From positions 969,414 through 1,033,413 of the forward strand of contig CBDDAG010000003.1 in the NCBI GenBank assembly GCA_965224825.1: DNA of 64,000 nt, in the 5' to 3' direction. The first letter of the stretch is position 1. Each line of letters opens with the position of its first letter. Source of the DNA: Gammaproteobacteria bacterium (GTDB lineage Bacteria > Pseudomonadota > Gammaproteobacteria > CAJXQU01). Position numbers and translations under genes: made by a program. Below, piece after piece: positions 28,844-53,904 of this stretch. The notes beneath the pieces are model-generated. The model did no database searches. It was not told the origin of the DNA and saw only the letters and a program-made list of their open reading frames with translations.

Positions 28844-30889
28844 ATGGCGCAGGAAGTTCATCTGGATAAAGAACAAATTGATCAACTAGAAGAATATTAT
28901 CGACAAGGCCTGTATCTCAAGGCCTATGAACAAACCTCAGAGCTTGGCCACATAAAGCATTGGCGCGGCGAGAAAGGGCGAATCCTTGCTGGCCGATTAG
29001 CCTACAATCTCGGTGGACACCGCCTGGGTTACCTTCTGCATTATCGCGCATGGAAAGAACATCCTGAATCTGGCGAGGCCATTTATTTTTATGCGCGTGC
29101 GCTGGCAACTGTGCGTGGAGCGTATCGAGCTTTGCGTTTTATTCGTGAAACAGGCGATCTTCCAGACAACACTTCCAAAGAAAGAAAAGCCGAATGGCGA
29201 GCTTTTGAAGCTTATCTTCTGGGTCGTTTTCGGGACTTTGATAATGCAGAAAAACTGATCGCGGAAGCAAAAGAAATTGATCCGGATAGTAATTGGATCG
29301 AGCTGGAACGAGCCAGCTTGTACGAATTTCAGGATCGTTATGACGATGCACTAGAAGTGACCACCGCCGTATTGGAAAAATCTCCGTGGTATCGATCGGG
29401 CGTTCAACATCATGCGCAACTGCTTCAATCCAGAGGGCGTGATGATGACGCGCTAAAACTGCTTACAGAAGCGATGAATCATATTGAGAGTTCAGGTGTT
29501 GCCGCACAGTGTTTACAGTTGCAGATCGAATTAAAACAATATCCTGAAGCTTTAAAAAATCTTGATCTCTACGAAAAATTGACACCTTTAAAAGACAAGG
29601 GCGAGAAACAATGGATTGCCGGACGACGTTCGGATCTCGCTTATTTTATGGGTGATCTTGATCAGGCGATCAGTCATGCTGAAGATGAAGGACGACCTTT
29701 TTATACGCATCTTGCAGAAAAACTGAAAGAGCCTGGCGATAATAAATCTGTGCGGCTGGGTGTGGAATTTGTCAAACAGCATCATATGACTTGTGGCCCG
29801 GCGACGCTGACTTCGATCGCGCAATATTGGGGACGTGAAGTGAACCAACTCGATGTAGTCGAGGACATCTGGTACGACGGCACTTCCGAATATAGCGAAA
29901 GGCAATGGGCGGTCAAAAATGATTATATTGTCCATGAATTTACATTGACTTGGGATTCGGCGGTTGCTTTGCTGGACAAGGGAATTCCTTTTGCACTTTC
30001 TACAGTTGAGCCGGGATCAGCACATTTGCAAGCCGTGATCGGTTATGACGAAGCGCGAGGTGTTTTTCTGGTGCGTGATCCGGGAACCCGATCTACGACA
30101 GAATTTTTTGCTGAAAAAGCGCTGGAGTTTTATGCATGGACTGGCCCTCGGGCGATGGTTTTAATTCCCGCTGACAAGGCTGATCTGTTAGATGGTATCG
30201 AGCTTCCGGATCGAGATATTTATGATCGTTATTTCTGGATCAAAGCGGCGTTGGAAAAAAATGATCGTGCTGCAGCTTCTGCTCATATTGAAGAAGCTGA
30301 AAAACGCTGGCCTGATCATCGTTTGCTACACGTGGCGAACCGATCGATTGCGATCTATGACGATAACGAAGCACGCATTCTTGAAAATACGGAAAAACTT
30401 TTAGAACTATTTCCTGGCAACATTAACTACCTGATGAGCAAACAACAGTCGTTGGGGAATCTTGGGCGGCGAAAAGAACAGCAGGCTTTTGTTGATGAAG
30501 CCTGCGGTGAGTCCAACGAGCATTCCATTTTGTTAATGCAAAAAGCGCAAATGTTGAGCGACGATGCGCGTGAATTTGATACGGTGGAAGAAATTTTACT
30601 CAAGCTGATCCGTTGGCAGCCACAAAATTCGGAAGCCTATTTTTTACTGGCTTATGTGCGCCGGGAACAAAATCGTTTTGATGAATCTATCGAATTATAT
30701 CGGATCGTTTCCTGTCTCGAAGACAAGGTTGAACGCTATGTGAGTAATTATTTCAAAGCGCTGCGTTGTCGTAAACGTGGTGAAGAAGGGATCGCATTTC
30801 TGAAAGATCGCTTTGATCGTTTTGGTGATAAATCTGCATTATCCGGCGATCTCTTTATGCCGTGCTTACGAGTGGTTGGATCAGGATAA
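28844..30889 (+). CDS. TPR-repeat protein with central papain-like peptidase C39-type domain
   Basis: …QHHMTCGPATLTSIAQYWG… (Q-x-CG-x-A-x-L…G Cys motif) and …SAHLQAVIGYDEARGVFLVRDPG… (His/Asp region), flanked by TPR repeats. Confidence 0.55.
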   Translation: MAQEVHLDKEQIDQLEEYYRQGLYLKAYEQTSELGHIKHWRGEKGRILAGRLAYNLGGHRLGYLLHYRAWKEHPESGEAIYFYARALATVRGAYRALRFIRETGDLPDNTSKERKAEWRAFEAYLLGRFRDFDNAEKLIAEAKEIDPDSNWIELERASLYEFQDRYDDALEVTTAVLEKSPWYRSGVQHHAQLLQSRGRDDDALKLLTEAMNHIESSGVAAQCLQLQIELKQYPEALKNLDLYEKLTPLKDKGEKQWIAGRRSDLAYFMGDLDQAISHAEDEGRPFYTHLAEKLKEPGDNKSVRLGVEFVKQHHMTCGPATLTSIAQYWGREVNQLDVVEDIWYDGTSEYSERQWAVKNDYIVHEFTLTWDSAVALLDKGIPFALSTVEPGSAHLQAVIGYDEARGVFLVRDPGTRSTTEFFAEKALEFYAWTGPRAMVLIPADKADLLDGIELPDRDIYDRYFWIKAALEKNDRAAASAHIEEAEKRWPDHRLLHVANRSIAIYDDNEARILENTEKLLELFPGNINYLMSKQQSLGNLGRRKEQQAFVDEACGESNEHSILLMQKAQMLSDDAREFDTVEEILLKLIRWQPQNSEAYFLLAYVRREQNRFDESIELYRIVSCLEDKVERYVSNYFKALRCRKRGEEGIAFLKDRFDRFGDKSALSGDLFMPCLRVVGSG

Positions 30890-33827
30890 AGAAGCTGAAA
30901 ATGCACTCCTTAAAGCACTTAATTCCCGACCAGATGATCCCGATTTACTTTTGTTCGGATCAGACTTTCTGGCGCGTCACAGTAAGTTTGATCAAGCGCG
31001 TGCTTTGCTGGAACGAGCCAAAGGAAAATGTCAGGAATTGCGCTGGCACGTTGAACAGGCCGATTTGGCGGATTATGAAGGTGAACTGAGTAAATCACTG
31101 GAATATTGGGAACAGGTTTTGGCCGCTGATCCGATGCATTTCCGAGCGATCCGTATGACAACTCGATTATTGTCTGAGACTAAAGATCGCCAGGCGGCTC
31201 TGAATTTCCTCGAACGGAAAAAAGATCAATTTCCTTATCACCACGACATTCAGAGCTTATGGGTAGATTGGCTGGATCAGGCTCCGTTATCTGAAAAAGG
31301 TGCGGCTTTGCGTCGATTGCTGGAATTAAATCCGCAAGATGATTGGGGTTTCCGGGAACTGGGACGGGTGTTGGGACAACAGGATCGTTTTGATGAAGCT
31401 TATGAAAATCTGGAAACAGCCCGACAACTTGATCCGACTAATGCCAGCTATTACAACCTCGTTGGTGAACTAAAAGAACGCCAGGGAAATATCAATGAAG
31501 CGATCGAATCTTATCGTGAAGCATTAAAATTAAATATTGATAATGATTTTGCCATGCGTGCTTTATTACGTTGCAGCAACTCAAACGATGCTAAAAAAGA
31601 ACAGCTTGAGTTTATTCGCCAGCAGTTGATCGAGCAGGTTACTCTGGGTGATGGTTTGATGTCATTTCAGGCATTAGCCGGCGATATTTTACAGCCAGAA
31701 GAATTGCTTAAAGAACTGCACAACGCAGTCGAACAAAGGCCTGATCTATGGAATGCCTGGGCTGCGATCAGTCGGGAGTATATGGATGCCGGTCAGTTAG
31801 AAGAAGCCTTGAAATATAGTAAAGAAGGCACGGATCGTTTTCCTTTGTTGCCTCGCTTATGGCTGGATCAGGCAAGAATTTATCGCTACATGGGCGAGTC
31901 GGAAGAAGAGAAAAGATGTCTCGAAAGAACCATGGAACTGGCTCCATCATGGAGCACGGCGATCCGACAGCTTGCCGAATATCACGAAACTCGTGGCGAT
32001 TATGCGGCTTCAAAAGCGATCATGGAAAGTGCGCTGACACGGATCCCGCTTGATCCATATTGTCGTGGTTTTCTGGCCGATGCATTGTGGCACTTGGGCG
32101 AACGTGATCAGGCGTTGGTTGAAATTGCTCGTGCGATAGAACTTGATCCGGAATATGACTGGGCATGGAGTGCGCTGGATCGTTGGGCAGATATTCTGGA
32201 ACAACCGGATCTGGCTGAACAAACCGCCAGAAAAATGGTGATGAACAAGCCGGGTGATGCTGATCTGTGGTGTGTGCTGGCCAGAATGCAGGACGATCCG
32301 GAAGAGAGATTAAGCTCGCTGGAAAAGGCTATCGAACTCAGCCCACGTCTGGTTGATGCGCATGAACAAAAGATTGTGATCCTGTGTCGAATGGAAGAAT
32401 ACGACAAAGCACGGGCTGCGGTAAATCATCCAGGCTGGAATGGAACTCCGCCGATGTCGATTCGTGGACATGGCCCCTGGATCAGTCGACAGGAAGGTGA
32501 TCATGATCGCAGTATTGCCGAAATGGATGCTTTGTTAGAGCAGGAGCCGACCTATTATGACGGTTTCCGGATGCTGGCTGATTGGCATGACAATGCGAAT
32601 AGTTTCGAAGAATATTTATCGGCCAGTCAGAAAATGCTGAAGCTGGATCCAACCAGTCCACACGCCATGTCTTATGTTGGCGATGCGTTGCATGATCTTG
32701 AACGTGATGATGAAGCGATCCCATATTTACAACAGGCAGCTGAACGCGATCCATCTTCGACTCTGGCAAACTTTATCCTGTTCGATATTTTGAAAGAACG
32801 TGATGATGTTCCGGCTATGCAGACCTTGATGGAAAAAATGAAACTGCATATTTTGGATAATAATTTTGTCGTAGCACGAGAAGGATCTCTGGCCGCAAGA
32901 ACGATGGACAAAGAACGGGCGATGGAATGTCTGCAAGAATTGGCGTTCTGTGGGGATGAAAATAGCTGGTTGTTTAATACCTGTATCGGCAGTATGAAAA
33001 GTGCGCGTTGGGAAGCCGATATGATCGAGACGATGGGTGAGTTTATCCAGGAAGAAAACTGCGTTGCTCCCATTGGTCGATATTGGGGCGAGATCGTCAA
33101 TGAGGAAAAAGCCTGGGATTCGCAATTGCCACGATTGAAAAATTCTTTTGATAAGGGCACGCCGGCCAGTGTTCAGGCCATGTCAGAATATCAGGATTTT
33201 GTTGCACTAAATGGATCAAAAAAAGAACACAAAAACCTGATCAGTTCTCTCGGTGAGCAACTGAGACAAAATCCGCTGACCTGGGGATCGGTCATGTATA
33301 GCTTTAGTGTCAATGATGATCTGGATGCTGGTATTAAATGGGCAGGCAATTCCTGGCGCGAAGACTCAGCTGAACGTGGTTGGGGGCTCTACTATCTTTC
33401 GCTGTTACATTGGCAAAAAAAGGATGTTGAGAAAGCACTGGAAGCAGGCCTTCATGGGGTTAATGATAATAATTTTTATATGCACGAGCCGATGTTGGCG
33501 ATGGGTTATTTCTTAACGGACGACGTGGAAAACACCGTGCTCTGGAAAGACAGAATCAATCATCATGCCATGGGCGGATATCAGGACATGCTCAACGATA
33601 CGCTGGAAATGGGACTTATTGCCTATGATCAAAGTCTTGATAATAAAGAGGCCTTGACGGGAATAAAACAAAAGTTAAGCGAGATCAATGAAGTTAAATC
33701 GGATCATGAAGATACTATTTATGAATATGTTCTTGACCAGGTTTTAGACAAGGTTGGTGAAGCTCGTAGCGGTTTCCGTTGGAAAGCCAGCACGTCGATA
33801 TTGAGTGTGAAATCTGCCTGGACCTAA
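30813..33827 (+). CDS. Large TPR-repeat protein, 1004 aa (probably continuous with 28844-30889 through a frameshift)
   Basis: TPR-like repeats throughout. 77-nt overlap in a different frame with the upstream ORF. Confidence 0.55.
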   Translation: MIVLVINLHYPAISLCRAYEWLDQDKEAENALLKALNSRPDDPDLLLFGSDFLARHSKFDQARALLERAKGKCQELRWHVEQADLADYEGELSKSLEYWEQVLAADPMHFRAIRMTTRLLSETKDRQAALNFLERKKDQFPYHHDIQSLWVDWLDQAPLSEKGAALRRLLELNPQDDWGFRELGRVLGQQDRFDEAYENLETARQLDPTNASYYNLVGELKERQGNINEAIESYREALKLNIDNDFAMRALLRCSNSNDAKKEQLEFIRQQLIEQVTLGDGLMSFQALAGDILQPEELLKELHNAVEQRPDLWNAWAAISREYMDAGQLEEALKYSKEGTDRFPLLPRLWLDQARIYRYMGESEEEKRCLERTMELAPSWSTAIRQLAEYHETRGDYAASKAIMESALTRIPLDPYCRGFLADALWHLGERDQALVEIARAIELDPEYDWAWSALDRWADILEQPDLAEQTARKMVMNKPGDADLWCVLARMQDDPEERLSSLEKAIELSPRLVDAHEQKIVILCRMEEYDKARAAVNHPGWNGTPPMSIRGHGPWISRQEGDHDRSIAEMDALLEQEPTYYDGFRMLADWHDNANSFEEYLSASQKMLKLDPTSPHAMSYVGDALHDLERDDEAIPYLQQAAERDPSSTLANFILFDILKERDDVPAMQTLMEKMKLHILDNNFVVAREGSLAARTMDKERAMECLQELAFCGDENSWLFNTCIGSMKSARWEADMIETMGEFIQEENCVAPIGRYWGEIVNEEKAWDSQLPRLKNSFDKGTPASVQAMSEYQDFVALNGSKKEHKNLISSLGEQLRQNPLTWGSVMYSFSVNDDLDAGIKWAGNSWREDSAERGWGLYYLSLLHWQKKDVEKALEAGLHGVNDNNFYMHEPMLAMGYFLTDDVENTVLWKDRINHHAMGGYQDMLNDTLEMGLIAYDQSLDNKEALTGIKQKLSEINEVKSDHEDTIYEYVLDQVLDKVGEARSGFRWKASTSILSVKSAWT

Positions 33828-42226: not shown

Positions 42227-43048
42227 CTAAGCTCCTGGTTGGCAACTACTGCAATAGAAACTTGATCGTTGTCCAATGACTTTCTTCCTGATCGGTTCCT
42301 GACATTTAGTACACGGCTCACCTTCCCTTCCATAAACAGCAAGTTTTTGTTTGAAATATCCCGGTTCACCAGAACTATTGGTAAAATCACGCAATGTTGT
42401 ACCGCCCTGCTTTATGGCTTGATCCAGAATTTTCTGAATAGCTGTTACCAGAATTTCAAAATGTTTTAAGGAGATTTTTCCGGCAGCAATATTGGGGTTA
42501 ATTCCACTCAGAAAAAGGGCTTCACTCGCATAAATATTTCCTACGCCGACAACTACTTTACTGTCCATAATAAAGTTTTTTATTGCAATCTTTCGTTGAC
42601 GAGATCGCTTATGTAACATGAGGGCATTGAATTCCTTATCCCAGGGTTCAGGGCCAAGATTATTTAATAACTTATGTTCAAGTGGATCACCCCTTGTCCA
42701 GAGGCAGCATCCAAATCTTCTTGGATCATGGAACCTTAAACATTGTTTGTTGGAGAGAATCAGATCAATGTGGTCATGTTTTTTTGGTGGGGAGTTCGCT
42801 GGAAGAATTCTAAGATTTCCAGACATGCCGAGATGAAGAATTATTGTCCCGGTATCTGTTCTAATCAGAATATATTTTCCACGACGTTTTACCGATTTGA
42901 TTTCTTGATCAATTGCTTCTGTTTTTAAACTTTCTGGAACCGGCCAACGCAAACGATGATCACGAATAATAATATCAGTAATTGTTTGATCCAGGAGATG
43001 TGGTTCGATACCACGAAGCGTTGTTTCTACCTCTGGTAACTCAGGCAT
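42227..43048 (-). CDS. mutM: Formamidopyrimidine-DNA glycosylase
   Basis: MPELPEVETT… N-terminus. H2TH. C-terminal C4 zinc finger. Confidence 0.95.
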   Translation of the reverse strand: MPELPEVETTLRGIEPHLLDQTITDIIIRDHRLRWPVPESLKTEAIDQEIKSVKRRGKYILIRTDTGTIILHLGMSGNLRILPANSPPKKHDHIDLILSNKQCLRFHDPRRFGCCLWTRGDPLEHKLLNNLGPEPWDKEFNALMLHKRSRQRKIAIKNFIMDSKVVVGVGNIYASEALFLSGINPNIAAGKISLKHFEILVTAIQKILDQAIKQGGTTLRDFTNSSGEPGYFKQKLAVYGREGEPCTKCQEPIRKKVIGQRSSFYCSSCQPGA

Positions 43049-43053
43049 GGTCT

Positions 43054-43578
43054 CTATTCAGCACTTTTTGCGATAAAAGATTCTGCGTCAGCGATCAGTA
43101 AATGGTGAGTTATATCTTTAACCGAGTGAACAATGCCATCATGGAATACATATCGTAGATGATTAAAATCATTGGTATTACCGAAATCAAATTGTTCATC
43201 GTTTAAGAAAAGAGTAACTTTCGGTTCAAATAATTCATACCGATGTAACTCTTTTTGTTTCATGATCTCATGCTGATGACGACTTTTAAGAGTTATAAAT
43301 TTCAAGAGTAAATTTAATTTTTCTGGATCTGCTTTACCTTCAATGGGGGAAGTTATGAGCCATGTTTGATCAGGTTTTTCAAGAATAATTTGTGTTTGAT
43401 CGGCTCTTTGAATCACAATGGTATCAACCTGCCCGGGGTTTAGTTTAGTAAGCTCAAACACTTCATTATCTTCAACAGGATTTCGATTGATGTACATTGT
43501 TAGTGAGGCAACAAGAGCAAGAAGTAACAGGTTAACAATGGTTCTTTTTGACAACATCACAACCCCCTTCTTCGCCAC
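43054..43578 (-). CDS. DUF4340-like periplasmic protein (ABC-2/GldG system accessory)
   Basis: N-terminal TM. Position downstream of the GldG-like gene. Confidence 0.45.
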   Translation of the reverse strand: MAKKGVVMLSKRTIVNLLLLALVASLTMYINRNPVEDNEVFELTKLNPGQVDTIVIQRADQTQIILEKPDQTWLITSPIEGKADPEKLNLLLKFITLKSRHQHEIMKQKELHRYELFEPKVTLFLNDEQFDFGNTNDFNHLRYVFHDGIVHSVKDITHHLLIADAESFIAKSAE

Positions 43579-44876
43579 CAGATAACAACTCCGGCGATTG
43601 CTAAAAGTAAAGGTAAAACGATCAAAAAACCAAGACCTATAATGGCAGAAAGAGTATCTGACATTTCAAAATCAAGATCGGTTGCTGGTCGCGACGGGAT
43701 TGTGATCAGTTGATCATCCGCACTTAACCAATTCATCATTCGTACACCCAGATCAAGATTGCCACCGTTTCCGATATAGCTATTGGAAATAAAATCACTA
43801 TCTCCGACGATTAGAATTCGTTGTTGGTTAGTTGGGGATGTCAGTGCCACTGCGAGCGTTAATGGACCAAGTTTTTCATGTGCTTCATCATAATCAACCT
43901 GATCTTTAATTTCTGAAATTTCTGTCCAGGACTGATCGCTGGAATTAATCAAAGGAAAACTATCCCAGTCTTTTGATGACTTTATTTCAAGTGCAAGAGC
44001 TTGTGGAAATAATGTTGTTAATGAAAAACTTTTTGTGATGGCGTGATCAGGGTATTGAGTAACCGGAATCAGATCAGGCTGGGTAATATTAAATGATTGT
44101 CCTGCACCATCGACAATAATTCCATCTAAAAACTTTACACCAATTAATCCAGCCAGTTCTGGTAAAAGTTGTCGGTGATCAGGCTCTGTTAACCATAAAA
44201 GATTACCACCCTTTTCCAGATAATTTTCTATGATCGGCCATTCGTCGGGTAATAAATTTACTTTTGGATCGGCAATAATCAACACACCTGTGTTATCAGG
44301 GATAGCGGTTGTTTCTGAAAGATTCAATGACTGAGAGTTCAGGCCGCGTTTTTTTAAATACCCAACAAATTTATCCAGATCAAAATTTGCATTTCCAACA
44401 GGAGCTCTTTCACCATGACCGTTAAGAAAAACTAACCAACGATCATCTCCGCGAAATAATGTTGCTATTGAGCTCGTGATCGATTGTTCTGATGGTTTTT
44501 GAAGATGCTCAGTTTTCCCCTGATACCTGATCAACATTTCTGCCGGGAAACGGATGTTATGTTCACGAACCTTGTCCGGGTTTTCTTCGGGGCTTATATA
44601 GTTGATCAAAATATCTGGTTTGATCTGTTGATATTGAGCCATTAGTTTTTCGACCTGTTGACCAAGCTGATCAGAACGATTTACAAACACATCGATTTCA
44701 ATTTTACCGCGTATTTTTTCCAGTAAAACTTTGCTTGGTTCAGTCAGTGATTGGCGACCATTTCTGGTGAGATCTTTGATCAGAATATTTTGTGTACTTG
44801 CCCAGGCCAATAGAACAATACAGCTAATCAAAAGTATCGGAAAGATCAGAGAATTTAGTTTGCGACCAAGATCCAT
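43557..44876 (-). CDS. GldG-like ABC-transport auxiliary component
   Basis: N- and C-terminal TM anchors with a large periplasmic domain. Typical partner of ABC-2 permease and ATPase. Confidence 0.6.
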   Translation of the reverse strand: MDLGRKLNSLIFPILLISCIVLLAWASTQNILIKDLTRNGRQSLTEPSKVLLEKIRGKIEIDVFVNRSDQLGQQVEKLMAQYQQIKPDILINYISPEENPDKVREHNIRFPAEMLIRYQGKTEHLQKPSEQSITSSIATLFRGDDRWLVFLNGHGERAPVGNANFDLDKFVGYLKKRGLNSQSLNLSETTAIPDNTGVLIIADPKVNLLPDEWPIIENYLEKGGNLLWLTEPDHRQLLPELAGLIGVKFLDGIIVDGAGQSFNITQPDLIPVTQYPDHAITKSFSLTTLFPQALALEIKSSKDWDSFPLINSSDQSWTEISEIKDQVDYDEAHEKLGPLTLAVALTSPTNQQRILIVGDSDFISNSYIGNGGNLDLGVRMMNWLSADDQLITIPSRPATDLDFEMSDTLSAIIGLGFLIVLPLLLAIAGVVIWWRRRGL

Positions 44877-45613
44877 TAACTTCGCTCCAGATCCAGTCGC
44901 CAGATTGTCAGGCCAAGAAATAATACTGTCAGTAATAGAAAATAGATCACATCAACGCTGGCAAGAAAACCAGAAACCATCGAACTGAAATGTTCCTGTA
45001 AAGAAAGATAGGTGGAAAAAACACCCATATTTTTGTCATCCCATTTTATGATCCACAAAAAGAATAATAGGGTAAATGTGCTGATCGCCGCGACGGTTGG
45101 CTGAGCAGTTAAAGAAGACATAAATAAACCGATGGCAATACAGGCCGAGGTCAGTAAAACCAGCCCCAATAGCCCGGCCATGATCTGTCCAATATCGACT
45201 GGCGCTCCAAGTAATAATGAAAAAGCCATGATCGCCAGCAGTAAAATGATGATCATAAAGAAACCGTATAAACCAAAGAACTTTCCAAGCACCAATTCTG
45301 TTAGCGAGACAGGTGAAGATAAAGTGAGTTTTAAGGTTCCGCTGCGTCGTTCTTCTGCCAGACTGCGTGAGCAAAATAATGGTGTGATGATCAGAAACAC
45401 GAGACCAGCGATCGAAAATAGACCGGCAGCGACAATTTCAGTCATTCCCGGAGCGGCATCTAGATTTCGTAAACGCGGTAAATATTGTATGAATAATTCG
45501 ATGCGGCTGAAAAACAGATAGGCAAATAGAAATTGCAGAATAGCCAGCGCGATCCAGGCTAATGGTGAAACAAACAGACTTTTAAATTCACGGGCAGCAA
45601 TGGTTCCGATCAT
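44876..45613 (-). CDS. ABC-2 family permease
   Basis: 6 TM, 245 aa. Overlaps the ATPase gene. Confidence 0.65.
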   Translation of the reverse strand: MIGTIAAREFKSLFVSPLAWIALAILQFLFAYLFFSRIELFIQYLPRLRNLDAAPGMTEIVAAGLFSIAGLVFLIITPLFCSRSLAEERRSGTLKLTLSSPVSLTELVLGKFFGLYGFFMIIILLLAIMAFSLLLGAPVDIGQIMAGLLGLVLLTSACIAIGLFMSSLTAQPTVAAISTFTLLFFLWIIKWDDKNMGVFSTYLSLQEHFSSMVSGFLASVDVIYFLLLTVLFLGLTIWRLDLERS

Positions 45614-46344
45614 GAAACCACCTCTTCGCTACAGGTTAGTCGAATGAAAACCTGTTCTAAAGGTTCGTTCTCGCTGAAGGAAGCGATAGGAGCATCGTGT
45701 ACCACTTTACCCTGCCGCAGGATGATGACTCGATCACAGACGGATTGCACTTCCGGCAAAATATGGGTGGACAGGATGACGCTGTGATCATTGCCCAGTT
45801 CGCGGATTAGTTTGCGGATTTCTACGATCTGCACCGGATCAAGTCCGACAGTTGGTTCATCGAGAATAATAATGTCCGGTTTGTGGATAATTGCCTGCGC
45901 AATTCCGACGCGTTGTTGATATCCTTTTGAGAGATTCCTGATCAGACGTTTACCAGTAGATTCAAGCCCACATCGTTTTTTTGCCTGATCAAGAGCTTCG
46001 GGAATCATGCTTGCTGCTATTCGTCGCAGTTTTGCAGAATAAACTAGATACTCATCGACGGTTAGTTCAGGATAAACGGGAGGTTGTTCTGGAAGATAAC
46101 CCAAACAGGCTCTAGCTTGCATGGGACTATCAGTAAGTGAGTGTTCACTAATTATGATCTTACCTTTATCCGGCATATGGATCCCGGCAAGCATGTTCAT
46201 GGTCGTAGATTTACCGGCGCCATTGACTCCTAAAAGCCCAAGAACCTCGCCCCGCTTCACTTTAAGGCTAATATTATCAACAGCAAGTCGATCACCAAAT
46301 GATCGTGTAAGGCCTTCTGCCTGAACGGTATATTCCTCTCCCAT
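45610..46344 (-). CDS. ABC transporter ATP-binding protein
   Basis: Walker A (GVNGAGKST), signature (LSKGYQQR), Walker B (ILDEPT). Confidence 0.85.
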   Translation of the reverse strand: MGEEYTVQAEGLTRSFGDRLAVDNISLKVKRGEVLGLLGVNGAGKSTTMNMLAGIHMPDKGKIIISEHSLTDSPMQARACLGYLPEQPPVYPELTVDEYLVYSAKLRRIAASMIPEALDQAKKRCGLESTGKRLIRNLSKGYQQRVGIAQAIIHKPDIIILDEPTVGLDPVQIVEIRKLIRELGNDHSVILSTHILPEVQSVCDRVIILRQGKVVHDAPIASFSENEPLEQVFIRLTCSEEVVS

Positions 46345-46481: not shown

Positions 46482-46637
46482 CTATTTAATTTTGGCTTCC
46501 TTATACATCACGTGCTTACGAACTACTGGATCGTATTTTTTCATTTCCATTTTATCCGGAACGTTGCGCTTGTTCTTGGTCGTTGTGTAATAGTGACCAG
46601 TGCCGGCACTTGATACGAGTTTGATTTTTTCTTGCAT
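46482..46637 (-). CDS. rpmG: 50S ribosomal protein L33 (51 aa, below the ORF-track cutoff)
   Basis: Manual translation [51 protein letters not shown]. Confidence 0.85.
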
Positions 46638-46663: not shown

Positions 46664-46900
46664 TTAAACTTTTTCGCCACGGGCGCGGATATCAGTCAAA
46701 ACTTGATCAATGCCCACTTTATCAATGAGACGAAGACCTTTGCTGCTGATTTTTAATTTAACCCAACGCTTTTCACTTTCCACCCAGAAACGATGGTTCT
46801 GAAGATTTGGCAAAAAACGACGACGCGTTTTATTGTTGGCGTGTGAAACGTTGTTGCCGGACATCGGCCCAACACCTGTAACTTGACATACTCGCGACAT
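46664..46900 (-). CDS. rpmB: 50S ribosomal protein L28
   Basis: [34 protein letters not shown]…. Confidence 0.9.
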
Positions 46901-47045
46901 TTCGGAGTCTCCGTAAACTTCTTATTAACTGAAAGGGGCGCGATCTTACACGGAAATGTGACTAGATCCAATAAAAATTAGCCTCATTAATGAGATTAAA
47001 TCAGCTTGTAAGTAATTGTGTATGAATAATTCTCTAGAATTCAGC

Positions 47046-47064
47046 CTATAATCAGTGATTATAG
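47046..47064. promoter_or_regulatory. Perfect 9-1-9 palindrome CTATAATCA-G-TGATTATAG (contains TATAAT) 37 bp upstream of the TIR gene
   Basis: Read in sequence. Followed by RBS AGGGAG and the ATG at 47101. Confidence 0.35.
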
Positions 47065-47100
47065 CGTTAATTTTAGTGAAGAGCTAAAGGGAGACGGGCT

Positions 47101-48897
47101 ATGAGTGATATTTTTATCAGCTATGCCAAAGAGGATCGCGAATGGGTTGTCTCGTTCGCCGGCGCTCTGCGAAAGCATGGATGGACAGTCTGGTGGGATC
47201 GCTCTATTCCATTTGGACAATCGTTTCAGGAAGTGATCGAAACGGAATTAGACGAGGCAAAATGCGCTATCGTCGTCTGGTCCGATCATTCTGTGGGTTC
47301 TGGCTGGGTCAGTGCCGAAGCCGACGAGGCCAGGAATCGCAACATTATGATGCCGGTGTTGATCGATGATGCTTCACCACCATTAGTCTTTCGACAATTA
47401 CAGACGGCCAACCTGAAAGACTGGAACAACGATACTTCTTCCCCGATATTCAAAAAGCTTATTGCGGATCTTTCAATGTTGATCGGACAACCGACAAAGC
47501 AACCAGAGCCTCCTCAGGCTCCTGTTTCTGAAGCGGCTCCGGCTCATCAAAAGAAAGTAGCTATGTGGCCATGGTTAACGGGGTTGGTGGGCATGTTTAT
47601 TATTGCCGTACTGTGGTTTTTTAATGAGCAGGAAACAGGCTCCCCAGTTGTTCAGCCCCCGATCGTTGATTCATTTCGTTTGGATAGCGATCATATAAAT
47701 GTTGGCGATGCATTAAGTTTAATCTGGAACACATCCGGTGCAAGCACGGTTGAAATAAAAGAGCTTGGAGAAGTTGCTCACTCAGGATCATTTGTCGTTC
47801 GACCTGAAAAAACCAGTGTATATACCCTGATCGCCAGAAACAGTCATGGTGACAGTACACAGGCATCTGTCCGAGTGGTTGTTGAACAGCGAGTAGTGGA
47901 AAAGCCCACAGAAGAAACTCCGGATCCAGCGATGTTAATCTCTCTCATTAACGAATCTCTGGAAGAAGGTCGTCCTGATCTGGCAGAGGAGTTCCTTGAA
48001 AAAGCGATCAAAATGTCACCGGATCATCCGGAAGTCCTGAAGATCGGAGATCGACTTGAAACTGAAAGACAGGCTCAACAACTCGCGGAAGATAAACGAC
48101 AAAAAGACCAAGCGGAAAAGATAAGAAAACAAGAACAACAACTAGCTGAACAGCAACGGGCTGAAGAAGATAAGCAAAATTCCGAAAAAATAAAATGGGG
48201 ACAAATGGAAGAAACCCGGCTAGCTGAAATTAAAAAACAGAAAGAAGCAGAACAATTAGCATTTGAAGAATTACGGCAGGAAAAGGAATCACAAAAATTA
48301 GCCGAAGAGCAACGAAGGAAGGAAGAAGAGATAAAGAAAAAGGCTGAAAAACAACGTCTGGCCGATATAGAAAGTCGAAAAAAAATCGAAGAAGAACGTC
48401 TACAAAAAGAGGTGCAGCAGAAAAAAGAGATTGCCGAAGAACAAAAAAAAGAGGAACAACAGCGTCGGGAAGAACTTGAAAAGCAACAAGCTTTAGCAGC
48501 CCCCGCGTCCATTGTTGTCAAAGTAGATGGTGTAGAAAAACGATTTAATCGTAATGGTTTGCTGGCATCAACACTCAGGGAAAATGTGGTTCAACAACTA
48601 CAGGCCGCTGGGTTTAATGTGGTCTCCATGGCTGAAGCAAAAAAGAGTAAAGATTCGATCGTGATGCTGTTGGCTTTTAAATATATAGAAAATACATCCG
48701 CAGGTTTTTACTCTTATACCGCCAGAACAATAATCAATTCTACATCGTCAATAAAGGACAAACCGCTCTGGGTAAAGGGCCAGACGGGTACTGCCAGAAG
48801 CGTTGAGTTAAGAAAAGTGAATGGTGTTTTTGCCACGAATGTAGAACAGTTTATTCGTGATCATCCCGAAAAAGGGCTGGAGTTCAGAAAGAACTGA
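47101..48897 (+). CDS. Membrane-anchored TIR-domain protein with Ig-like segment, about 200-aa ER/K-rich helical region and C-terminal globular domain
   Basis: N-terminal MSDIFISYAKEDREWV…WWDRSIPFGQSF…AIVVWSDHSVGSGWV… matches the bacterial TIR signature. TM at about aa 150-172. KE-rich low-complexity region. Confidence 0.7.
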   Translation: MSDIFISYAKEDREWVVSFAGALRKHGWTVWWDRSIPFGQSFQEVIETELDEAKCAIVVWSDHSVGSGWVSAEADEARNRNIMMPVLIDDASPPLVFRQLQTANLKDWNNDTSSPIFKKLIADLSMLIGQPTKQPEPPQAPVSEAAPAHQKKVAMWPWLTGLVGMFIIAVLWFFNEQETGSPVVQPPIVDSFRLDSDHINVGDALSLIWNTSGASTVEIKELGEVAHSGSFVVRPEKTSVYTLIARNSHGDSTQASVRVVVEQRVVEKPTEETPDPAMLISLINESLEEGRPDLAEEFLEKAIKMSPDHPEVLKIGDRLETERQAQQLAEDKRQKDQAEKIRKQEQQLAEQQRAEEDKQNSEKIKWGQMEETRLAEIKKQKEAEQLAFEELRQEKESQKLAEEQRRKEEEIKKKAEKQRLADIESRKKIEEERLQKEVQQKKEIAEEQKKEEQQRREELEKQQALAAPASIVVKVDGVEKRFNRNGLLASTLRENVVQQLQAAGFNVVSMAEAKKSKDSIVMLLAFKYIENTSAGFYSYTARTIINSTSSIKDKPLWVKGQTGTARSVELRKVNGVFATNVEQFIRDHPEKGLEFRKN

Positions 48898-48961
48898 TTC
48901 AGGCTAATCGGCTCACAGTTTTGTATCTGGTGAATCTATACTGGATGGTATTTAAACCAAC

Positions 48962-49636
48962 CTAGATCATTCCTCGTTCGGCTAAAGACAAGGCTTCTCC
49001 ATCACCAACAATAAAATGATCAAGGACACGAACGTCGATTAGATCCAGCGCTTCTTTCAGGCGTTGTGTGATCTGTTGATCTGATCGACTGGGTTCAGTA
49101 ATCCCAGAAGGATGGTTATGGGCAAGGATCAGTGCAGCGGCATTATGATGTAGCGCTCGTTTTACGACTTCTCTTGGATGAACAGAAGCGCCATCAATAG
49201 TACCCCTGAATAATTCTTCGTAAGCGATCACACGATGTTTGTTGTCGAGAAATAATGCGGCAAAAACCTCATGTGGATGCTGGCGCAATTGTGCGGTGAG
49301 AAAAGCGCGGGTGTCTTCCGGACTGGTTAGCGCATCGGATCGTTCCAGTGATGATTTCAGGTATCGGCGGCAGAGTTCTAATGTCGCCTGAAGCTGGGTA
49401 AATTTAGCATCGCCCAGACCTTTTGCCTGACAGAAGGTTTTCCGATCAGCTTCCAGAAGTGCACGAAGACTACTGAATTCGGTGAGCAGATCGCGCGCTA
49501 GATCAATGGCTGATTTGCCGGTGACGCCGGTGCGTAGGAAGATCGCCAGCAACTCTGCGTCAGAAAGTGCCGCTGGTCCCATGCTCAATAATTTTTCTCT
49601 GGGACGTTCTGAAACCGGCCAGTGATTGATACCCAT
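48962..49636 (-). CDS. radC: RadC/UPF0758 JAMM-family protein (ORF extends to 49648 but the likely start is MGINHW)
   Basis: …[14 protein letters not shown]… JAMM motif. Position upstream of coaBC as in enterobacteria. Confidence 0.85.
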
Positions 49637-49709
49637 TGTCACCTCCATGTGATATTCGGTTAAGGGTTTTGACCATGATTATAATAATCTTGTGCCTATG
49701 CGGTAAACT

Positions 49710-51423: not shown

Positions 51424-53904
51424 TTGATGAAAACAAAGAAAAAAGAAAAAGAACCTTTATCCCCGGAGGCAAAAAAACTCCTGATATTCGTTGGCGTCCT
51501 CATTTTGTTGGGGCTGCTGGCAAAGATCTTTTTGCCTGGCTTTCTGGAGCAAAGAAAAGAAGAAAAACAAGCTGCAGAAAAACAGGAAATGACCGAGTAC
51601 GCTGGCAAGGTTGCCGGTGAGATCCCACGTCTGTTTGCTAAGAACATTAATGAACTTGAGAAAATGAGTCAGGAAGCTGAAGTGCTGGCACTTTTTCAAA
51701 ATTATCAAAAGGTTGAAGCTGAAGGATTAGCCAGCAAGAATAGTACTCGTTTTGAGAACAGTCTTAAATTACGACTTCTTCCTCCGGATATTGATCAAAC
51801 TGATCATGAAGATCCTCCGTTGACCTTTGCCTCTCTTGAAATGACGCGTAATGCCGTGAAATCAAATTCTCCGGTACAGGCAGAATGGCATTTTCCAAAA
51901 CAGGCCGTTGAACATATTGTGTTGGTACAGCGAGTTAACAACGAAGCTGGTGAAGCCATTGGCGCTTTGCATTTAAGTCTTAAGGTTGATCCGGTACATG
52001 AGCTATTTAAGAAAGTGGTTGATAGTAGTATTGCCTTAACCGAACTCAGGCAGGGCACAAGTGTAGGTGGTTCGGTTGTTCTGGCCACGGCTGGTGATAA
52101 GAATCGAGCTTTGCCTGGCCAGGCTGTTGTTGTACCTATTGCGAGAGCTCGATGGACGATTAAAGCACAAAATTACCCTGTGCAGGTTATTGATAGAAGT
52201 AATCTAAAAAGACTGGGCGGGCTTGGACTTGCCGGATTTCTTGGCTGGTTAATTTTCTGGTTGAGAAAATTGAAAATTGAGCGTGACTCAAGAGTAACCC
52301 TGTCCGCGAACAGACAGACTTCTCGACGAACAGCCATGATCACGCCTGAAGACACGGGTGATCTGGAAGAAATAATTGAGAACATGCCGGATAAGGATGA
52401 AGAGGAGGTTCAGCAGGTTTTTGATGAAGCTGAGATAGAAGACGAAATTGTGATTGATGATGAGGAAATTGAAGTGCCTGAAATTGATGATATAGCAGAT
52501 AATAACGATGATGTTGATGAAGCGACAAATGCCCCGGCTTCTATTTTCAGAGCCTATGATATTCGAGGTGTTGTTGGTGACACATTGACCGAAAAAATAG
52601 TTTATAACATCGGCCGAGCACTGGGGAGCGAGGCACTTGCCCGTGGCGATAATACGGTGGTTGTCGGTCGTGACGGTCGGCTTTCCAGTCCAGCATTGTC
52701 AGAAGCTTTGATTAAAGGCTTGAACGAAAGTGGCCGCGATGTGATCGATATTGGCATGGTGCCGACGCCGGTTCTTTATTTTGGAGCCAATTATTTTGAC
52801 ACCACCAGCGGCATCATGATCACTGGCAGCCATAATCCTCCCGATTACAATGGCATCAAAATGGTGTTGGCAGGCACGACGCTGGCTGATGAAGCAATTC
52901 AGGCGCTGCGTCAGCGGATCCTTGAAAACGATTACACGCAAGGTGAGGGTAAATCTCAAACAGCTGAAATTGGTTCAGAATATATTCGTCGGATCACTGA
53001 TGATATCCCTGTCGCTATCAGCAATTCTTTTAAGGTTGTTGTTGATTCTGGCAATGGCGTTGCTGGTCAACTTGGGCCACAACTGCTTCGCGCTTTGGGA
53101 CATGATGTTGTGGAACTATTCTGCGAAATCGATGGTAACTTCCCGAACCATCATCCCGATCCAAGCCAACCTGAAAATCTTGTCGATCTGATCAATGCCG
53201 TCAAATCTGAAAAAGCCGATCTGGGATTGGCTTTTGATGGTGACGGTGATCGTCTTGGTGTGGTTGATCGTGATGGAAATATAATTTGGCCAGATCGTCA
53301 AATGATGTTATTTGCTCGAGACGTGATCGAACGCAATCCGGGTGGCGAAATAATTTTTGATGTGAAATGTAGCAATCATCTTCGCCGAGTAATCGAAGAA
53401 GCGGGCGGCAAGGCCACTATGTGGAAAACCGGACATTCTTTGATCAAGGCAAAAATGAAAGAAACCGGAGCTTTATTAGCGGGTGAAATGAGTGGGCATG
53501 TGTTCTTCAAAGAGCGTTGGTATGGTTTTGATGACGGTCTTTATACAGCAGCGCGTTTGTTGGAAATTCTGGTCAAATCAGATCAGCCGCCACACGAAAT
53601 ACTGGGAAGTTTACCAGGAGGCGTTGCTACACCAGAATTAAAACTGGATATGCACGAAGATCAACATGGAGCCTTTATGGCGACATTGATCGAGCTGGCC
53701 AATTTTGGTGAAGGTGAAATCGGAACTATTGATGGTATTAGAGTTGATTTCCCAGACGGCTGGGGTTTGATCCGACCATCGAACACCACGCCTTGTTTGG
53801 TGATGCGTTTCGAGGCGGATAATGAAGCTGCGCTTGAACGAATTCAACAGTTGTTTAAAGAACAATTGCTTGGGCTTGATCCAACCCTAAAACTACCTTA
53901 CTAA
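51424..53904 (+). CDS. algC: Phosphomannomutase/phosphoglucomutase with 360-aa N-terminal membrane-spanning extension
   Basis: C-terminal about 460 aa is PMM/PGM (active-site …TGSHNPPDYNG…, Mg site …DGDGDR…). N-terminal part has 2 TM and an acidic linker. Confidence 0.85.
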   Translation: MMKTKKKEKEPLSPEAKKLLIFVGVLILLGLLAKIFLPGFLEQRKEEKQAAEKQEMTEYAGKVAGEIPRLFAKNINELEKMSQEAEVLALFQNYQKVEAEGLASKNSTRFENSLKLRLLPPDIDQTDHEDPPLTFASLEMTRNAVKSNSPVQAEWHFPKQAVEHIVLVQRVNNEAGEAIGALHLSLKVDPVHELFKKVVDSSIALTELRQGTSVGGSVVLATAGDKNRALPGQAVVVPIARARWTIKAQNYPVQVIDRSNLKRLGGLGLAGFLGWLIFWLRKLKIERDSRVTLSANRQTSRRTAMITPEDTGDLEEIIENMPDKDEEEVQQVFDEAEIEDEIVIDDEEIEVPEIDDIADNNDDVDEATNAPASIFRAYDIRGVVGDTLTEKIVYNIGRALGSEALARGDNTVVVGRDGRLSSPALSEALIKGLNESGRDVIDIGMVPTPVLYFGANYFDTTSGIMITGSHNPPDYNGIKMVLAGTTLADEAIQALRQRILENDYTQGEGKSQTAEIGSEYIRRITDDIPVAISNSFKVVVDSGNGVAGQLGPQLLRALGHDVVELFCEIDGNFPNHHPDPSQPENLVDLINAVKSEKADLGLAFDGDGDRLGVVDRDGNIIWPDRQMMLFARDVIERNPGGEIIFDVKCSNHLRRVIEEAGGKATMWKTGHSLIKAKMKETGALLAGEMSGHVFFKERWYGFDDGLYTAARLLEILVKSDQPPHEILGSLPGGVATPELKLDMHEDQHGAFMATLIELANFGEGEIGTIDGIRVDFPDGWGLIRPSNTTPCLVMRFEADNEAALERIQQLFKEQLLGLDPTLKLPY

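Follow-up and report, generated by a model that had tools for sequence, protein, structure and literature searches.

A membrane-spanning TIR protein encoded beside rpmB in an uncultured gammaproteobacterium, a candidate receptor sharing its periplasmic arm with Hanks-type kinases

The bacterial TIR systems known so far have been described as sensors of infection within the cell. In a 2024 survey of the TIR systems of Escherichia coli, Toll-like receptor (TLR)-like features, that is, a transmembrane (TM) segment together with an ectodomain, seemed to be absent from bacterial TIR systems (PMC11350192). The single-protein TIR systems of E. coli, including one with a TM segment, protect from phage (PMC11350192). 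Toll-like and IL-1 receptors are single-pass proteins with an extracytoplasmic sensing part, Ig-like in the IL-1 receptor, and a cytoplasmic TIR domain (PMC7075850). At the level of the bacterial envelope, Zorya, Kiwa, and SNIPE are inner-membrane proteins whose periplasmic part was proposed to detect a disturbed envelope or the injection of DNA and to activate a cytoplasmic effector (PMC13434031).

Here, a 64,000-nucleotide stretch of DNA from an uncultured gammaproteobacterium (the window) was analyzed, and a TIR gene next to rpmB was compared with these systems. Like the E. coli single-protein systems, it is a single gene without a linked effector. However, those proteins and the enzyme-type TIR proteins are soluble or minimally anchored, whereas about 420 residues of the protein described here form a predicted periplasmic arm. 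It shares with Toll-like and IL-1 receptors the single pass, the extracytoplasmic sensing part, and the cytoplasmic TIR domain, but the order is reversed (the TIR domain is N-terminal), there is no LRR match, and the TIR domain is of the bacterial enzyme type and not of the adaptor type; the resemblance is an architectural analogy, not orthology. Zorya, Kiwa, and SNIPE differ in their components (a motor with a nuclease, a DNA-binding protein, and a nuclease, respectively) and have neither a TIR domain nor such an arm. No homology of the TIR protein to these three systems was found, and PADLOC matched its TIR part only. On balance, we favor the reading that the gene encodes a single-pass inner-membrane receptor in which the arm would trigger an NAD+-cleaving TIR output.

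The TIR gene is an open reading frame (ORF) at 47101–48897 on the plus strand and encodes 598 amino acids (aa). Because the N terminus MSDIFISY is present in every homologue, the assignment of its ATG start codon is sound. A Shine-Dalgarno motif, GGGAG (47089–47093, plus strand), lies 7 nt upstream of the ATG, and orthologues have a similar purine-rich motif. The divergent left neighbor, on the conserved side of the locus, is rpmB (L28; 46664–46900, minus strand; Pfam Ribosomal_L28), and the convergent right neighbor, on the variable side, is radC (48962–49648, minus strand; Pfam RadC). The earlier note had given the ORF exactly, on the opposite strand between rpmB and radC, and the E. coli order that it quoted, mutM-rpmG-rpmB-radC-coaBC-dut, was verified in an annotated genome. 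Along the gene, the GC content of 40 to 48% stays in the local range; a recent transfer visible in the composition was therefore rejected. A high AT skew at 47750–48500 coincides with, and probably stems from, the coding segment rich in E and K. Between the stop codons of the TIR gene and radC, no terminator or hairpin was found.

Upstream of the gene, the octamer CCTATAAT (47045–47052, plus strand) was invariant in 5/5 aligned orthologues, including the one in L005, which lies at an unrelated genomic position; it resembles a −10 box and putatively belongs to the promoter region. Since a simple sigma-70 scan called no full −35/−10 pair upstream of the TIR gene, the promoter was placed solely by this conserved box. 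The gene had also been credited with a palindromic site of its own. A palindrome, TATAATCA-G-TGATTATA, does exist at 47047–47063 (unstranded), and it is a possible operator, but it is perfect in the window only. In the orthologues, the left half, CCTATAAT, is alone invariant and the right arm is partly kept (ATnATAG), so that the site is mainly the conserved −10-like box.

The cytoplasmic TIR_2 domain (Pfam PF13676) occupies aa 1–130 (47101–47490, plus strand), with the codon of the candidate catalytic Glu, E73, at 47317–47319. The TIR_2 profile matched aa 4–112 over profile positions 1–115 of 122 (E = 2.5e-25; 89.8 bits against a cutoff of 28). Among PDB sequences, AbTIR (7uwg/8g83), 7uxr, PdTIR (3h16), and TcpB (4lqc) were matched at low identity, with E values of about 1e-6 to 1e-7 and over only the first 75 to 87 residues or so. 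These enzyme-type TIRs share with the protein a TIR_2-type domain that starts with DxFISYxxED and contains the WxxxE motif. The segment GWVSAE (W69 and E73) was aligned with DWTNYE of AbTIR, NWTEYE of 7uxr, and QWPARE of 4c7m, which makes E73 the Glu of WxxxE, the residue that we take to be catalytic in the solved bacterial TIR enzymes. Both W69 and E73 were invariant in nine aligned sequences, and the Glu and Trp of the motif are also invariant across the wider TIR subtype. Judging from these alignments, the domain probably belongs to the enzyme-type bacterial TIRs and probably cleaves NAD+. Among orthologues, the mean pairwise amino-acid identity of the TIR domain was 84% although fourfold sites were near saturation (identity, 0.39 to 0.43), which indicates strong purifying selection. 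The AF2 model of aa 1–130, built from a shallow alignment of seq­uences numbering seven, showed the alternating beta/alpha order expected for the flavodoxin-like TIR fold at a pLDDT of only 35 to 75, and Foldseek gave no TIR match. This part of the model was poor, and the active site is accordingly a prediction from sequence.

In both PADLOC and NCBIfam, the TIR part was matched best by defense TIRs. In PADLOC-DB v2, the first 76 to 82 residues matched the TIR parts of the PDC-S66, SAVED-TIR, and ThsB models, and no system protein was matched over its full length. The likeness to ThsB of Thoeris was weak at the profile level (PADLOC ThsB, E = 2.3e-5; NCBIfam type III ThcB4, 30.2 bits), and membership was rejected on the scores (30.2 versus 220 bits for ThcB4; 15.3 versus 21.2 bits for Pfam ThsB_TIR). 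In six genomic contexts, no ThsA-type effector (SIR2/SLOG, Macro-TM, or similar) adjoined the TIR gene. The same TIR subtype also heads other TM proteins with varied ectodomains, namely Ig repeats with PG_binding_1, Big_2, or FGE-sulfatase.

Behind the TIR domain, a poorly conserved Pro/Gln-rich linker (aa 131–152; 47491–47556, plus strand) leads to a single TM helix (aa 153–176; 47557–47628, plus strand), for which an N-in/C-out topology was predicted from hydrophobicity and flanking charges. The linker and TM region had a mean pairwise identity of 47%, and segment 131–182 was modeled by AF2 at a pLDDT below 50. Residues 153–176 contain the sole strongly hydrophobic 19-mer (Kyte-Doolittle mean, 2.0), which in orthologues is preceded by Lys/His and followed by Glu. 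Because there is no signal peptide and the flanking charges indicate N-in, the TIR domain was placed in the cytoplasm; everything C-terminal of the TM helix is predicted to lie in the periplasm.

The periplasmic part begins with an Ig-like beta-sandwich (aa 186–264; 47656–47892, plus strand), assigned by AF2, with strands at 188–262 and block-mean pLDDT of 78 to 90, and by Foldseek, which returned SoxYZ, an alpha2-macroglobulin domain, and superoxide reductase. This module recurs as repeats in another protein (P0008). A TPR-like helical hairpin follows (aa 274–309; 47920–48027, plus strand; AF2 helices 276–288 and 292–305); matches to Pfam TPR_14/TPR_8 at aa 278–313 were below threshold, and the kinase homologues described below have TPR-type repeats at the same position. 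Next comes an E/K/R/Q-rich segment of the ER/K single-alpha-helix type (aa 310–463; 48028–48489, plus strand; AF2 helices 310–394 and 416–463). In its charged region (aa 313–463, about 150 aa), 67% of the residues are E, K, R, or Q, and both Pro and heptad periodicity are lacking. It has 33 opposite-charge i/i+4 pairs, against 21.8 ± 3.6 in shuffles, an excess that fits an ER/K single alpha-helix. The span of the charged helix was 153 to 179 aa in seven orthologues. In AF2 the helix is broken at aa 395–415, so that it could bend or pair. Among orthologues, the ectodomain diverges fast.

The protein ends in an alpha/beta domain of 135 aa (C-domain; aa 464–598, with the stop codon 48490–48897, plus strand) of an unnamed family with an outer-membrane-lipoprotein-like fold. 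No match to it was found in Pfam, NCBIfam, or PDB sequences, where OpgG, KARI, and LytR_C appeared at chance level only and were rejected. The modeled fold is that of the periplasmic and outer-membrane lipoproteins HpaA, PelC, CsgG, TolB-N, and LptE, a fold of proteins located at the outer membrane or peptidoglycan, and a viral fold library gave no significant match. Among 1.84 billion representatives, 69 relatives of the C-domain were found, and standalone C-domain genes adjoin dsbB in two unrelated loci. Three giant adhesins (P0041, P0050, and P0097) gave repeated partial matches over the first 45 or so profile positions; they were treated as spurious, and Pfam scans of P0050 and P0097 placed Ig/cadherin repeats at the matched sites. 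A word-indexed search with the broad alignment A6 returned 11 unnamed small proteins and missed the orthologues, and its count of output domains is thus unreliable. The C-domain is a candidate for a new domain family of the Gram-negative envelope. Taken part by part, the earlier note was right about the N-terminal TIR domain, the single TM helix, the Ig-like beta-rich stretch, the C-terminal globular domain of about 130 aa without an assigned family, and the unusual TIR-TM-single-alpha-helix architecture; the charged region is of the ER/K type as it proposed, but about 150 aa long and not about 200.

The C-domain profile also retrieved proteins that run from a Pkinase domain through TM, TPR-like repeats, and E/K/R/Q coil to the C-domain. 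These arm-bearing Hanks Ser/Thr kinases were P0036, P0045, P0046, P0048, P0049, P0053, P0055, P0062, and P0074; the Pkinase domain was confirmed by Pfam scan in eight of them and, for P0036, by the precomputed annotation of its source. Profile matches to the kinase C termini had E values of 5e-13 to 1e-8. P0036 and the TIR protein were 30% identical over 220 aa of coil and C-domain (pairwise E = 7e-19). One source names P0036 merely "serine/threonine protein kinase," and the arm-bearing kinases appear to be uncharacterized. Kinases and TIR protein have the same order of cytoplasmic output, one TM helix, TPR-like helices, E/K/R/Q helix, and C-domain, but the kinases differ in their kinase output, in their numerous TPR-like repeats, and in lacking an Ig-like domain. 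The TIR protein itself had no Pkinase match in Pfam, and its TIR domain holds that position. In addition, P0095 is an independent TIR-TM-coil-C-domain protein with a different, unrelated TIR subtype, and the coil and C-domain were also found on an M48 peptidase lipoprotein and, by themselves, in a secreted protein.

Since coil and C-domain are common to both, the TIR domain and the kinase are alternative cytoplasmic outputs of one predicted sensor module; since the same pair ends membrane-spanning Hanks kinases, the TIR domain takes the place of the output in a candidate transmembrane receptor. The earlier note, which had suggested a membrane-tethered NADase with a signaling or defense role, missed this arm. 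Its proposal holds in that the protein is a membrane-anchored TIR protein with an invariant E73, but the arm common to receptor kinases recasts it as what appears to be a transmembrane receptor with a TIR output, more than a tethered NADase.

The history of the locus was followed through related genomes. In four sister MAGs, radC lies next to rpmB and the TIR gene is absent there, with three of the four gaps measuring 77 to 114 bp. The rpmB leader ending in GATCCAA (about 46966) aligned in 8/8 loci, occupied and empty, and the leader end was followed within 77 to 114 bp by the radC stop codon in L007, L008, and L010, all of them empty sites. Because sister genomes have no TIR gene between rpmB and radC, the insert of about 2.0 kb (46967–48961, plus strand), from the conserved leader to the radC stop codon, is clade specific. 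Within the clade, the TIR gene was beside rpmB in five of six contexts (the window, L001, L003, L004, and L014). On the right, radC adjoined the gene in L004 as in the window, L003 had a TetR gene and L001 had groEL in this place, and msrA also occurred among the six contexts. No partner gene beside the TIR gene was conserved in them. In L005 and L021, homologous patatin genes (38% identity) occur close to the TIR gene, but the window and the other loci have none, and the association was rejected as too weak.

A mobile-element cargo was also rejected. The TIR gene is the only long ORF of the insert, which has no integrase or transposase ORF; no tRNA gene that could serve as an integration target occurs in the window, in which an Rfam scan found nothing; no long repeats were seen in or beside the insert, and there were no inverted repeats at its 3′ junction. 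Five of the six contexts were syntenic. At the junctions there is at most a 4- to 5-bp duplication, CCAA(C/T), possibly due to chance. Viral contigs gave one distant, TIR-only match, and the family was therefore taken not to be phage borne. Between the window and L001, fourfold identity was 0.62 in the flanks and 0.36 in the gene (Fisher P = 9e-8), indicating deeply diverged alleles at one locus and, from these sequences, one likely allele replacement within the clade. No defense island surrounds the TIR gene, whose neighbors are housekeeping genes, and the same is true of distant TIR-TM relatives. The lineage-specific insertion proposed earlier was thus supported by the rpmB-radC spacing, but within the clade the gene keeps a stable, syntenic place beside rpmB and is not a freely mobile island gene.

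How such a receptor might work can be outlined from its parts. If fully helical, the charged segment would measure about 23 to 27 nm, which by geometry would be enough to put the C-domain near the outer membrane. A change there, whether through binding of a partner or ligand, clustering, distortion of the envelope in phage adsorption, DNA injection, or envelope damage, would alter the oligomeric state of the arm and could gather the TIR domains in the cytoplasm. Self-association is required for known TIR enzymes to form their active site, and the clustered domains would then cleave NAD+. As no partner gene is conserved beside the TIR gene, the most economical output would be a loss of NAD+ together with arrested growth or abortive infection; alternatively, a diffusible ADPR-derived signal might reach an unlinked effector.

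A role in phage defense is plausible. Presence and absence among related genomes, together with diverged alleles, are defense-like population genetics. Against this, the position beside rpmB is stable across genomes with near-saturated synonymous sites, which is atypical of fast-turnover defense genes. Because the arm-sharing kinases look like ordinary signaling proteins, the arm may sense a physiological cue of the envelope and not an invader. More tentatively, and with less confidence than in the receptor itself, we propose a functional analogue of TLRs, in which an outer-membrane-proximal domain on a rigid, periplasm-length helix would sense an extracytoplasmic event (phage adsorption or injection, or envelope breach) and cluster an NAD+-cleaving TIR domain. 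The arm would then be an exchangeable input module for a Ser/Thr kinase, TIR domain, or protease, and the C-domain a new periplasmic sensor family.

The strongest alternative, though an unlikely one, is a housekeeping receptor for envelope signaling, paralleling the receptor kinases: the arm would monitor periplasm width, peptidoglycan, the state of the outer membrane, or a partner lipoprotein, and the TIR domain would make a regulatory ADPR-derived nucleotide or tune NAD+ modestly, without killing the cell. It would account for the occurrence of the arm on Hanks kinases that lie as lone genes among ordinary genes, for the C-domain genes beside dsbB, for the stable rpmB-side position with housekeeping neighbors, and for the purifying selection on the TIR domain. 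However, sister genomes that are similarly related lack the TIR gene, which is therefore dispensable; conflict genes are a better fit for allele replacement and a fast-diverging ectodomain; and the neighboring genes include no receiver or effector for a signal made by the TIR domain. To our knowledge, the characterized catalytic TIRs of bacteria are defense proteins or host-targeting effectors, not housekeeping proteins (PMC11350192).

TolA is anchored in the inner membrane and ends in a globular domain; between the two runs a long charged helix, presumed to cross the periplasm, and the TIR protein shares this layout. A further alternative, which we regard as improbable, is a nonenzymatic tether: helix and end domain would connect the inner membrane with peptidoglycan or the outer membrane, and the TIR domain would serve only in protein-protein interaction. 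The fold of the end domain, which occurs in envelope proteins such as the TolB N-domain and LptE, would suit a tether, and animal TIR domains can be pure adaptors (PMC7075850). On the other hand, the invariance of the WxxxE Glu and Trp, in orthologues and in the wider TIR subtype, and the dispensability of the gene in sister genomes speak against it. TolA has no cytoplasmic enzyme domain, and no tolQR-like genes adjoin the TIR gene. Membership in the TolA family was rejected, as the end domain resembles TolB-N, LptE, PelC, and HpaA and not TolA domain III (TolA/TonB-C fold).

A secreted or translocated effector aimed at a eukaryotic host, which the earlier note had entertained and which the sequence similarity of the TIR domain to TcpB and PdTIR and the source, an uncultured gammaproteobacterium of no established lifestyle, might suggest, is very hard to sustain, because TcpB/BtpA, TcpC, and TirS are soluble, exported proteins with a C-terminal TIR domain, whereas here the TIR domain is N-terminal, lacks a signal peptide, and precedes one TM anchor predicted N-in and some 420 residues of periplasm-type modules, the arm is common to bacterial receptor kinases, and no secretion-system genes were seen among the neighbors scanned against Pfam.

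If the receptor with an arm-triggered TIR output is real, bacteria would also link TIR enzymes, through an arm that spans the periplasm, to what happens beyond the cytoplasm, and a TIR member would be added to the small set of envelope-level sensors formed by Zorya, Kiwa, and SNIPE. The occurrence of the same arm on receptor kinases is a natural experiment on what the arm senses. In addition, the conserved helix span of 153 to 179 residues makes the idea of a "molecular ruler" directly testable.

The TIR gene (47101-48897, plus strand) encodes a 598-aa protein and lies between rpmB (46664-46900) and radC (48962-49648), both on the minus strand. A ribosome-binding site, GGGAG, is located 7 nt ahead of its start codon, which is correct because the N terminus MSDIFISY is common to every homologue. 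As the earlier note had proposed, the protein begins with a TIR domain (Pfam TIR_2, aa 4-112; E=2.5e-25, with 89.8 bits where the cut-off is 28) followed by a single transmembrane (TM) helix, placed here at aa 153-176, the one hydrophobic segment (Kyte-Doolittle mean of 2.0). In the whole-protein structure model (mean pLDDT of 67), the Ig-like, beta-rich stretch expected after the helix was recovered as a beta-sandwich at aa 188-262 (block-mean pLDDT of 78-90), followed by two short helices (aa 276-305), long helices (aa 310-394 and 416-463), and an alpha/beta domain (aa 471-598). The E/K/R/Q-rich region was of the ER/K type assigned to it, but was about 150 aa long instead of about 200. This segment is 67% E/K/R/Q and has neither proline nor heptad periodicity; opposite charges at i/i+4 occurred 33 times, exceeding the 21.8 ± 3.6 of shuffled sequences, and its composition fits a predicted ER/K single alpha-helix. 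The gene is real, intact, and selectively maintained, with an unusual architecture, and was previously unannotated.

The TIR domain matched solved bacterial TIRs by sequence (7uxr, AbTIR 7uwg/8g83, 4c7m, PdTIR 3h16, and TcpB 4lqc; E=4e-7 to 4e-5). Its motif GWVSAE aligned with DWTNYE, NWTEYE, and QWPARE of the solved domains, in which the Glu aligned with E73 is the catalytic residue. E73, a candidate for the conserved catalytic Glu that had been expected, and W69 were invariant across all aligned relatives, and the Glu was also retained in a wider set of proteins starting with MSDIF[IV]SYA. The protein is a member of the TIR_2 family and, by motif, of the putative enzyme type. Among seven full-length orthologues, mean pairwise identity was 84% in the TIR domain and 47% to 61% in the other parts, and fourfold-degenerate sites in the same comparisons were near saturation (0.39-0.43 identical), so the TIR domain is under strong purifying selection. 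The structure model of this part was poor (pLDDT of 35-75), because the alignment was shallow and nearly invariant in this region.

When aa 464-598 were modelled alone, the C-terminal domain was predicted confidently (pLDDT of 88.6, pTM of 0.83). Its fold matched HpaA (score of 10.1), a flagellar LPHT-ring protein (8.8), CsgG (8.8), PelC (8.7), the TolB N-domain (8.7), TraT (7.8), LptE (7.6), PqiC (6.6), and LpoB (6.2), and Foldseek was in agreement; all of these proteins are periplasmic or outer-membrane associated. By sequence, no match was found in Pfam, NCBIfam, or the PDB, in line with the C-terminal domain of about 130 aa and no known family described earlier. When 1.84 billion representatives were searched exhaustively with a profile of this domain, 69 relatives were recovered. 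These included small proteins (about 175 aa) that carry Sec signal peptides (P0051, P0057, and P0064), a lipoprotein bearing an M48 peptidase domain (P0052), and another TIR_2 protein whose subtype differs (P0095; order TIR, TM, coil, C-terminal domain). Two further relatives, P0054 (L017, 6001-6582) and P0101 (L018, 4001-4546), are standalone secreted proteins consisting of this domain alone. On two contigs that are not related, their genes directly follow dsbB in the same orientation, perhaps as a conserved pair that would tie the domain to the oxidation of periplasmic proteins or to envelope biogenesis.

In at least eight relatives (817-1061 aa), a Hanks-type kinase at the N terminus is followed by a single TM helix, TPR-like repeats, a coil rich in E/K/R/Q, and the C-terminal domain. 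The full-length query had already recovered a ninth kinase of this type, P0036, which was 30% identical over the coil and C-terminal domain (pairwise E=7e-19). Since kinases carry the same coil and C-terminal domain, the extracytoplasmic arm is an input module that receptor kinases also use, with the TIR domain taking the output position. The same TIR subtype also occurs on membrane proteins with other ectodomains, namely Ig repeats with PG_binding_1, Big_2, and FGE-sulfatase. No signal peptide was found in the TIR protein. Across orthologues, the TM helix is flanked by Lys/His on its N-terminal side and Glu on its C-terminal side, and all segments beyond it are built of periplasm-type parts, from which we infer a cytoplasmic TIR domain and periplasmic residues 177-598.

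The TIR family is small: 5.8 billion sequences contained seven full-length orthologue clusters (52-100% identity), and every one came from uncultured gammaproteobacteria. The TIR gene is flanked by rpmB and rpmG on the left and radC, coaBC, and dut on the right; in an annotated E. coli genome the order is mutM-rpmG-rpmB-radC-coaBC-dut-slmA-pyrE, in agreement with the earlier note for the block up to dut. The earlier suggestion of a lineage-specific insertion was supported by four sister MAGs in which radC adjoins rpmB and the TIR gene is absent there, with neighbour proteins 63-88% identical to those of the window. Of the radC-rpmB gaps, whose spacing in relatives had been of interest, three are empty (77 bp in L007 and L008, 114 bp in L010), and that of L006 is about 1.1 kb. 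The suggestion needs one qualification, that the gene then stays in place: it is beside and divergent from rpmB in the window, L001, L003, L004, and L014, five of the six contexts, with a variable far-side neighbour (radC, a TetR gene, or groEL). In L005, it is at another genomic location.

Junction alignment bounded the insert at about 46967-48961, immediately after the conserved rpmB leader. The insert contains a conserved CCTATAAT box, also present in L005; no integrase, tRNA, or long repeats were found in it, and the TIR family was not found on viral contigs. CCAA(T/C) occurs at both junctions (46960-46967 and 48955-48962) and once in empty sites, which could reflect either a target duplication of 4-5 bp or coincidence. 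The rpmB 5' leader of about 70 nt (46901-46966; TTCGGAGTCTCCGTAAA...CTGAAAGGGGCGCGATCTTACACGGA...GATCCAA) hardly varies among the eight related loci, regardless of what sits upstream. It possibly serves rpmB-rpmG as a leader or regulatory element; an Rfam search of the window returned no known RNA family. A gene for an M48 peptidase lipoprotein, separate from the fused P0052, fills the gap in L006 (4926-5753) and adjoins radC in L003 (8840-9643), where TetR, DUF2141, and DUF2269 genes are also nearby. The rpmB-radC junction is a recurrent gene-gain site in this lineage.

Elsewhere in the window, a four-gene ABC-type cluster (43057-46344; DUF4340 protein, ABC_transp_aux/DUF7088 protein, ABC-2 permease, and ATPase) lies between mutM (42227-43048) and rpmG (46482-46637), unlike in E. 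coli, and is kept in related loci including L001, L003, and L014. The phosphoglucomutase/phosphomannomutase gene at 51424-53904 encodes 826 aa, with an N-terminal extension of about 370 aa that contains hydrophobic segments and is very acidic over one stretch; products of similar length were called in L003 and L004, and the protein is a predicted, unusual membrane-anchored form. Two adjacent large TPR proteins are encoded at 28844-33827 (681 aa with Peptidase_C39_2, and 1004 aa of many TPR repeats), as mechanical calls overlapping by about 77 bp.

Over about 5.8 kb ending at the rpmB start, the window and L001 share 80-95% identity, which falls to 51-82% across the TIR gene. Fourfold-site identity was 337/545 (0.62) in the flanks and 47/131 (0.36) in the TIR gene (Fisher p 9e-8); for the window and L014, the values were 0.51 and 0.48 (p 0.46). 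The two sequence types of the C-terminal domain are also at odds with genome relatedness. We read this as a deeply diverged allele apparently swapped in at a fixed locus, with the single window/L001 pair as the basis.

The charged helix has a conserved span of 153-179 residues in orthologues, or about 23-27 nm at 1.5 A per residue, which is of the order of the Gram-negative periplasm width. Thus, the helix could hold the C-terminal domain at the outer membrane or peptidoglycan. Self-association is required for known TIR enzymes to build their active site, as the Cat1 and TIR-STING filaments also illustrate. If the arm changed its oligomeric state or its position, the cytoplasmic TIR domains would cluster and NAD+ cleavage would be switched on. 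No conserved partner gene was found beside the TIR gene, so NAD+ depletion with growth arrest would be the simplest output; alternatively, the TIR may release a diffusible product that acts on an unlinked effector. Patatin-like phospholipase genes in L005 (3919-5088) and L021 (4645-5775), 38% identical over their full length, lie 1-2 kb from TIR-TM genes in otherwise unrelated contexts, and none was found near the TIR gene in the window or other loci; this proximity could be chance or a loose pairing.

On balance, a receptor with enzymatic TIR output is somewhat favored as the predicted function. Within this model, phage defence as the specific role is the less probable case. Defence-type TIR matches, patchy distribution, and allele replacement point to it, and single-protein TIR systems in E. 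coli provide a precedent (PMC11350192). However, the neighbourhood is housekeeping with stable synteny, distant TIR-TM relatives occupy similarly ordinary contexts, and the arm-sharing kinases look ordinary. A secreted or translocated effector, the other option raised earlier, has the wrong topology, with an N-terminal TIR domain and then a TM helix predicted N-in.

Several known systems were also compared. Thoeris scores were far below cut-offs and a ThsA-type neighbour was absent, matches to PADLOC systems were limited to the TIR part, and TolA has an end domain of a different fold. Toll-like and IL-1 receptors are an analogy only; the domain order is reversed here and the TIR types differ. 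Zorya, Kiwa, and SNIPE may be likened to it only broadly, as systems that sense in the periplasm and act through a cytoplasmic effector (PMC13434031). A 2024 E. coli survey noted that bacterial TIR systems seem to lack the transmembrane and ectodomain features typical of TLRs (PMC11350192), and we found no account in the open-access literature of a bacterial TIR on a periplasm-spanning arm or of the C-terminal domain. As predicted from sequence, the protein joins a TIR signalling or defence protein with the sensor arm of receptor kinases and an unnamed envelope domain.
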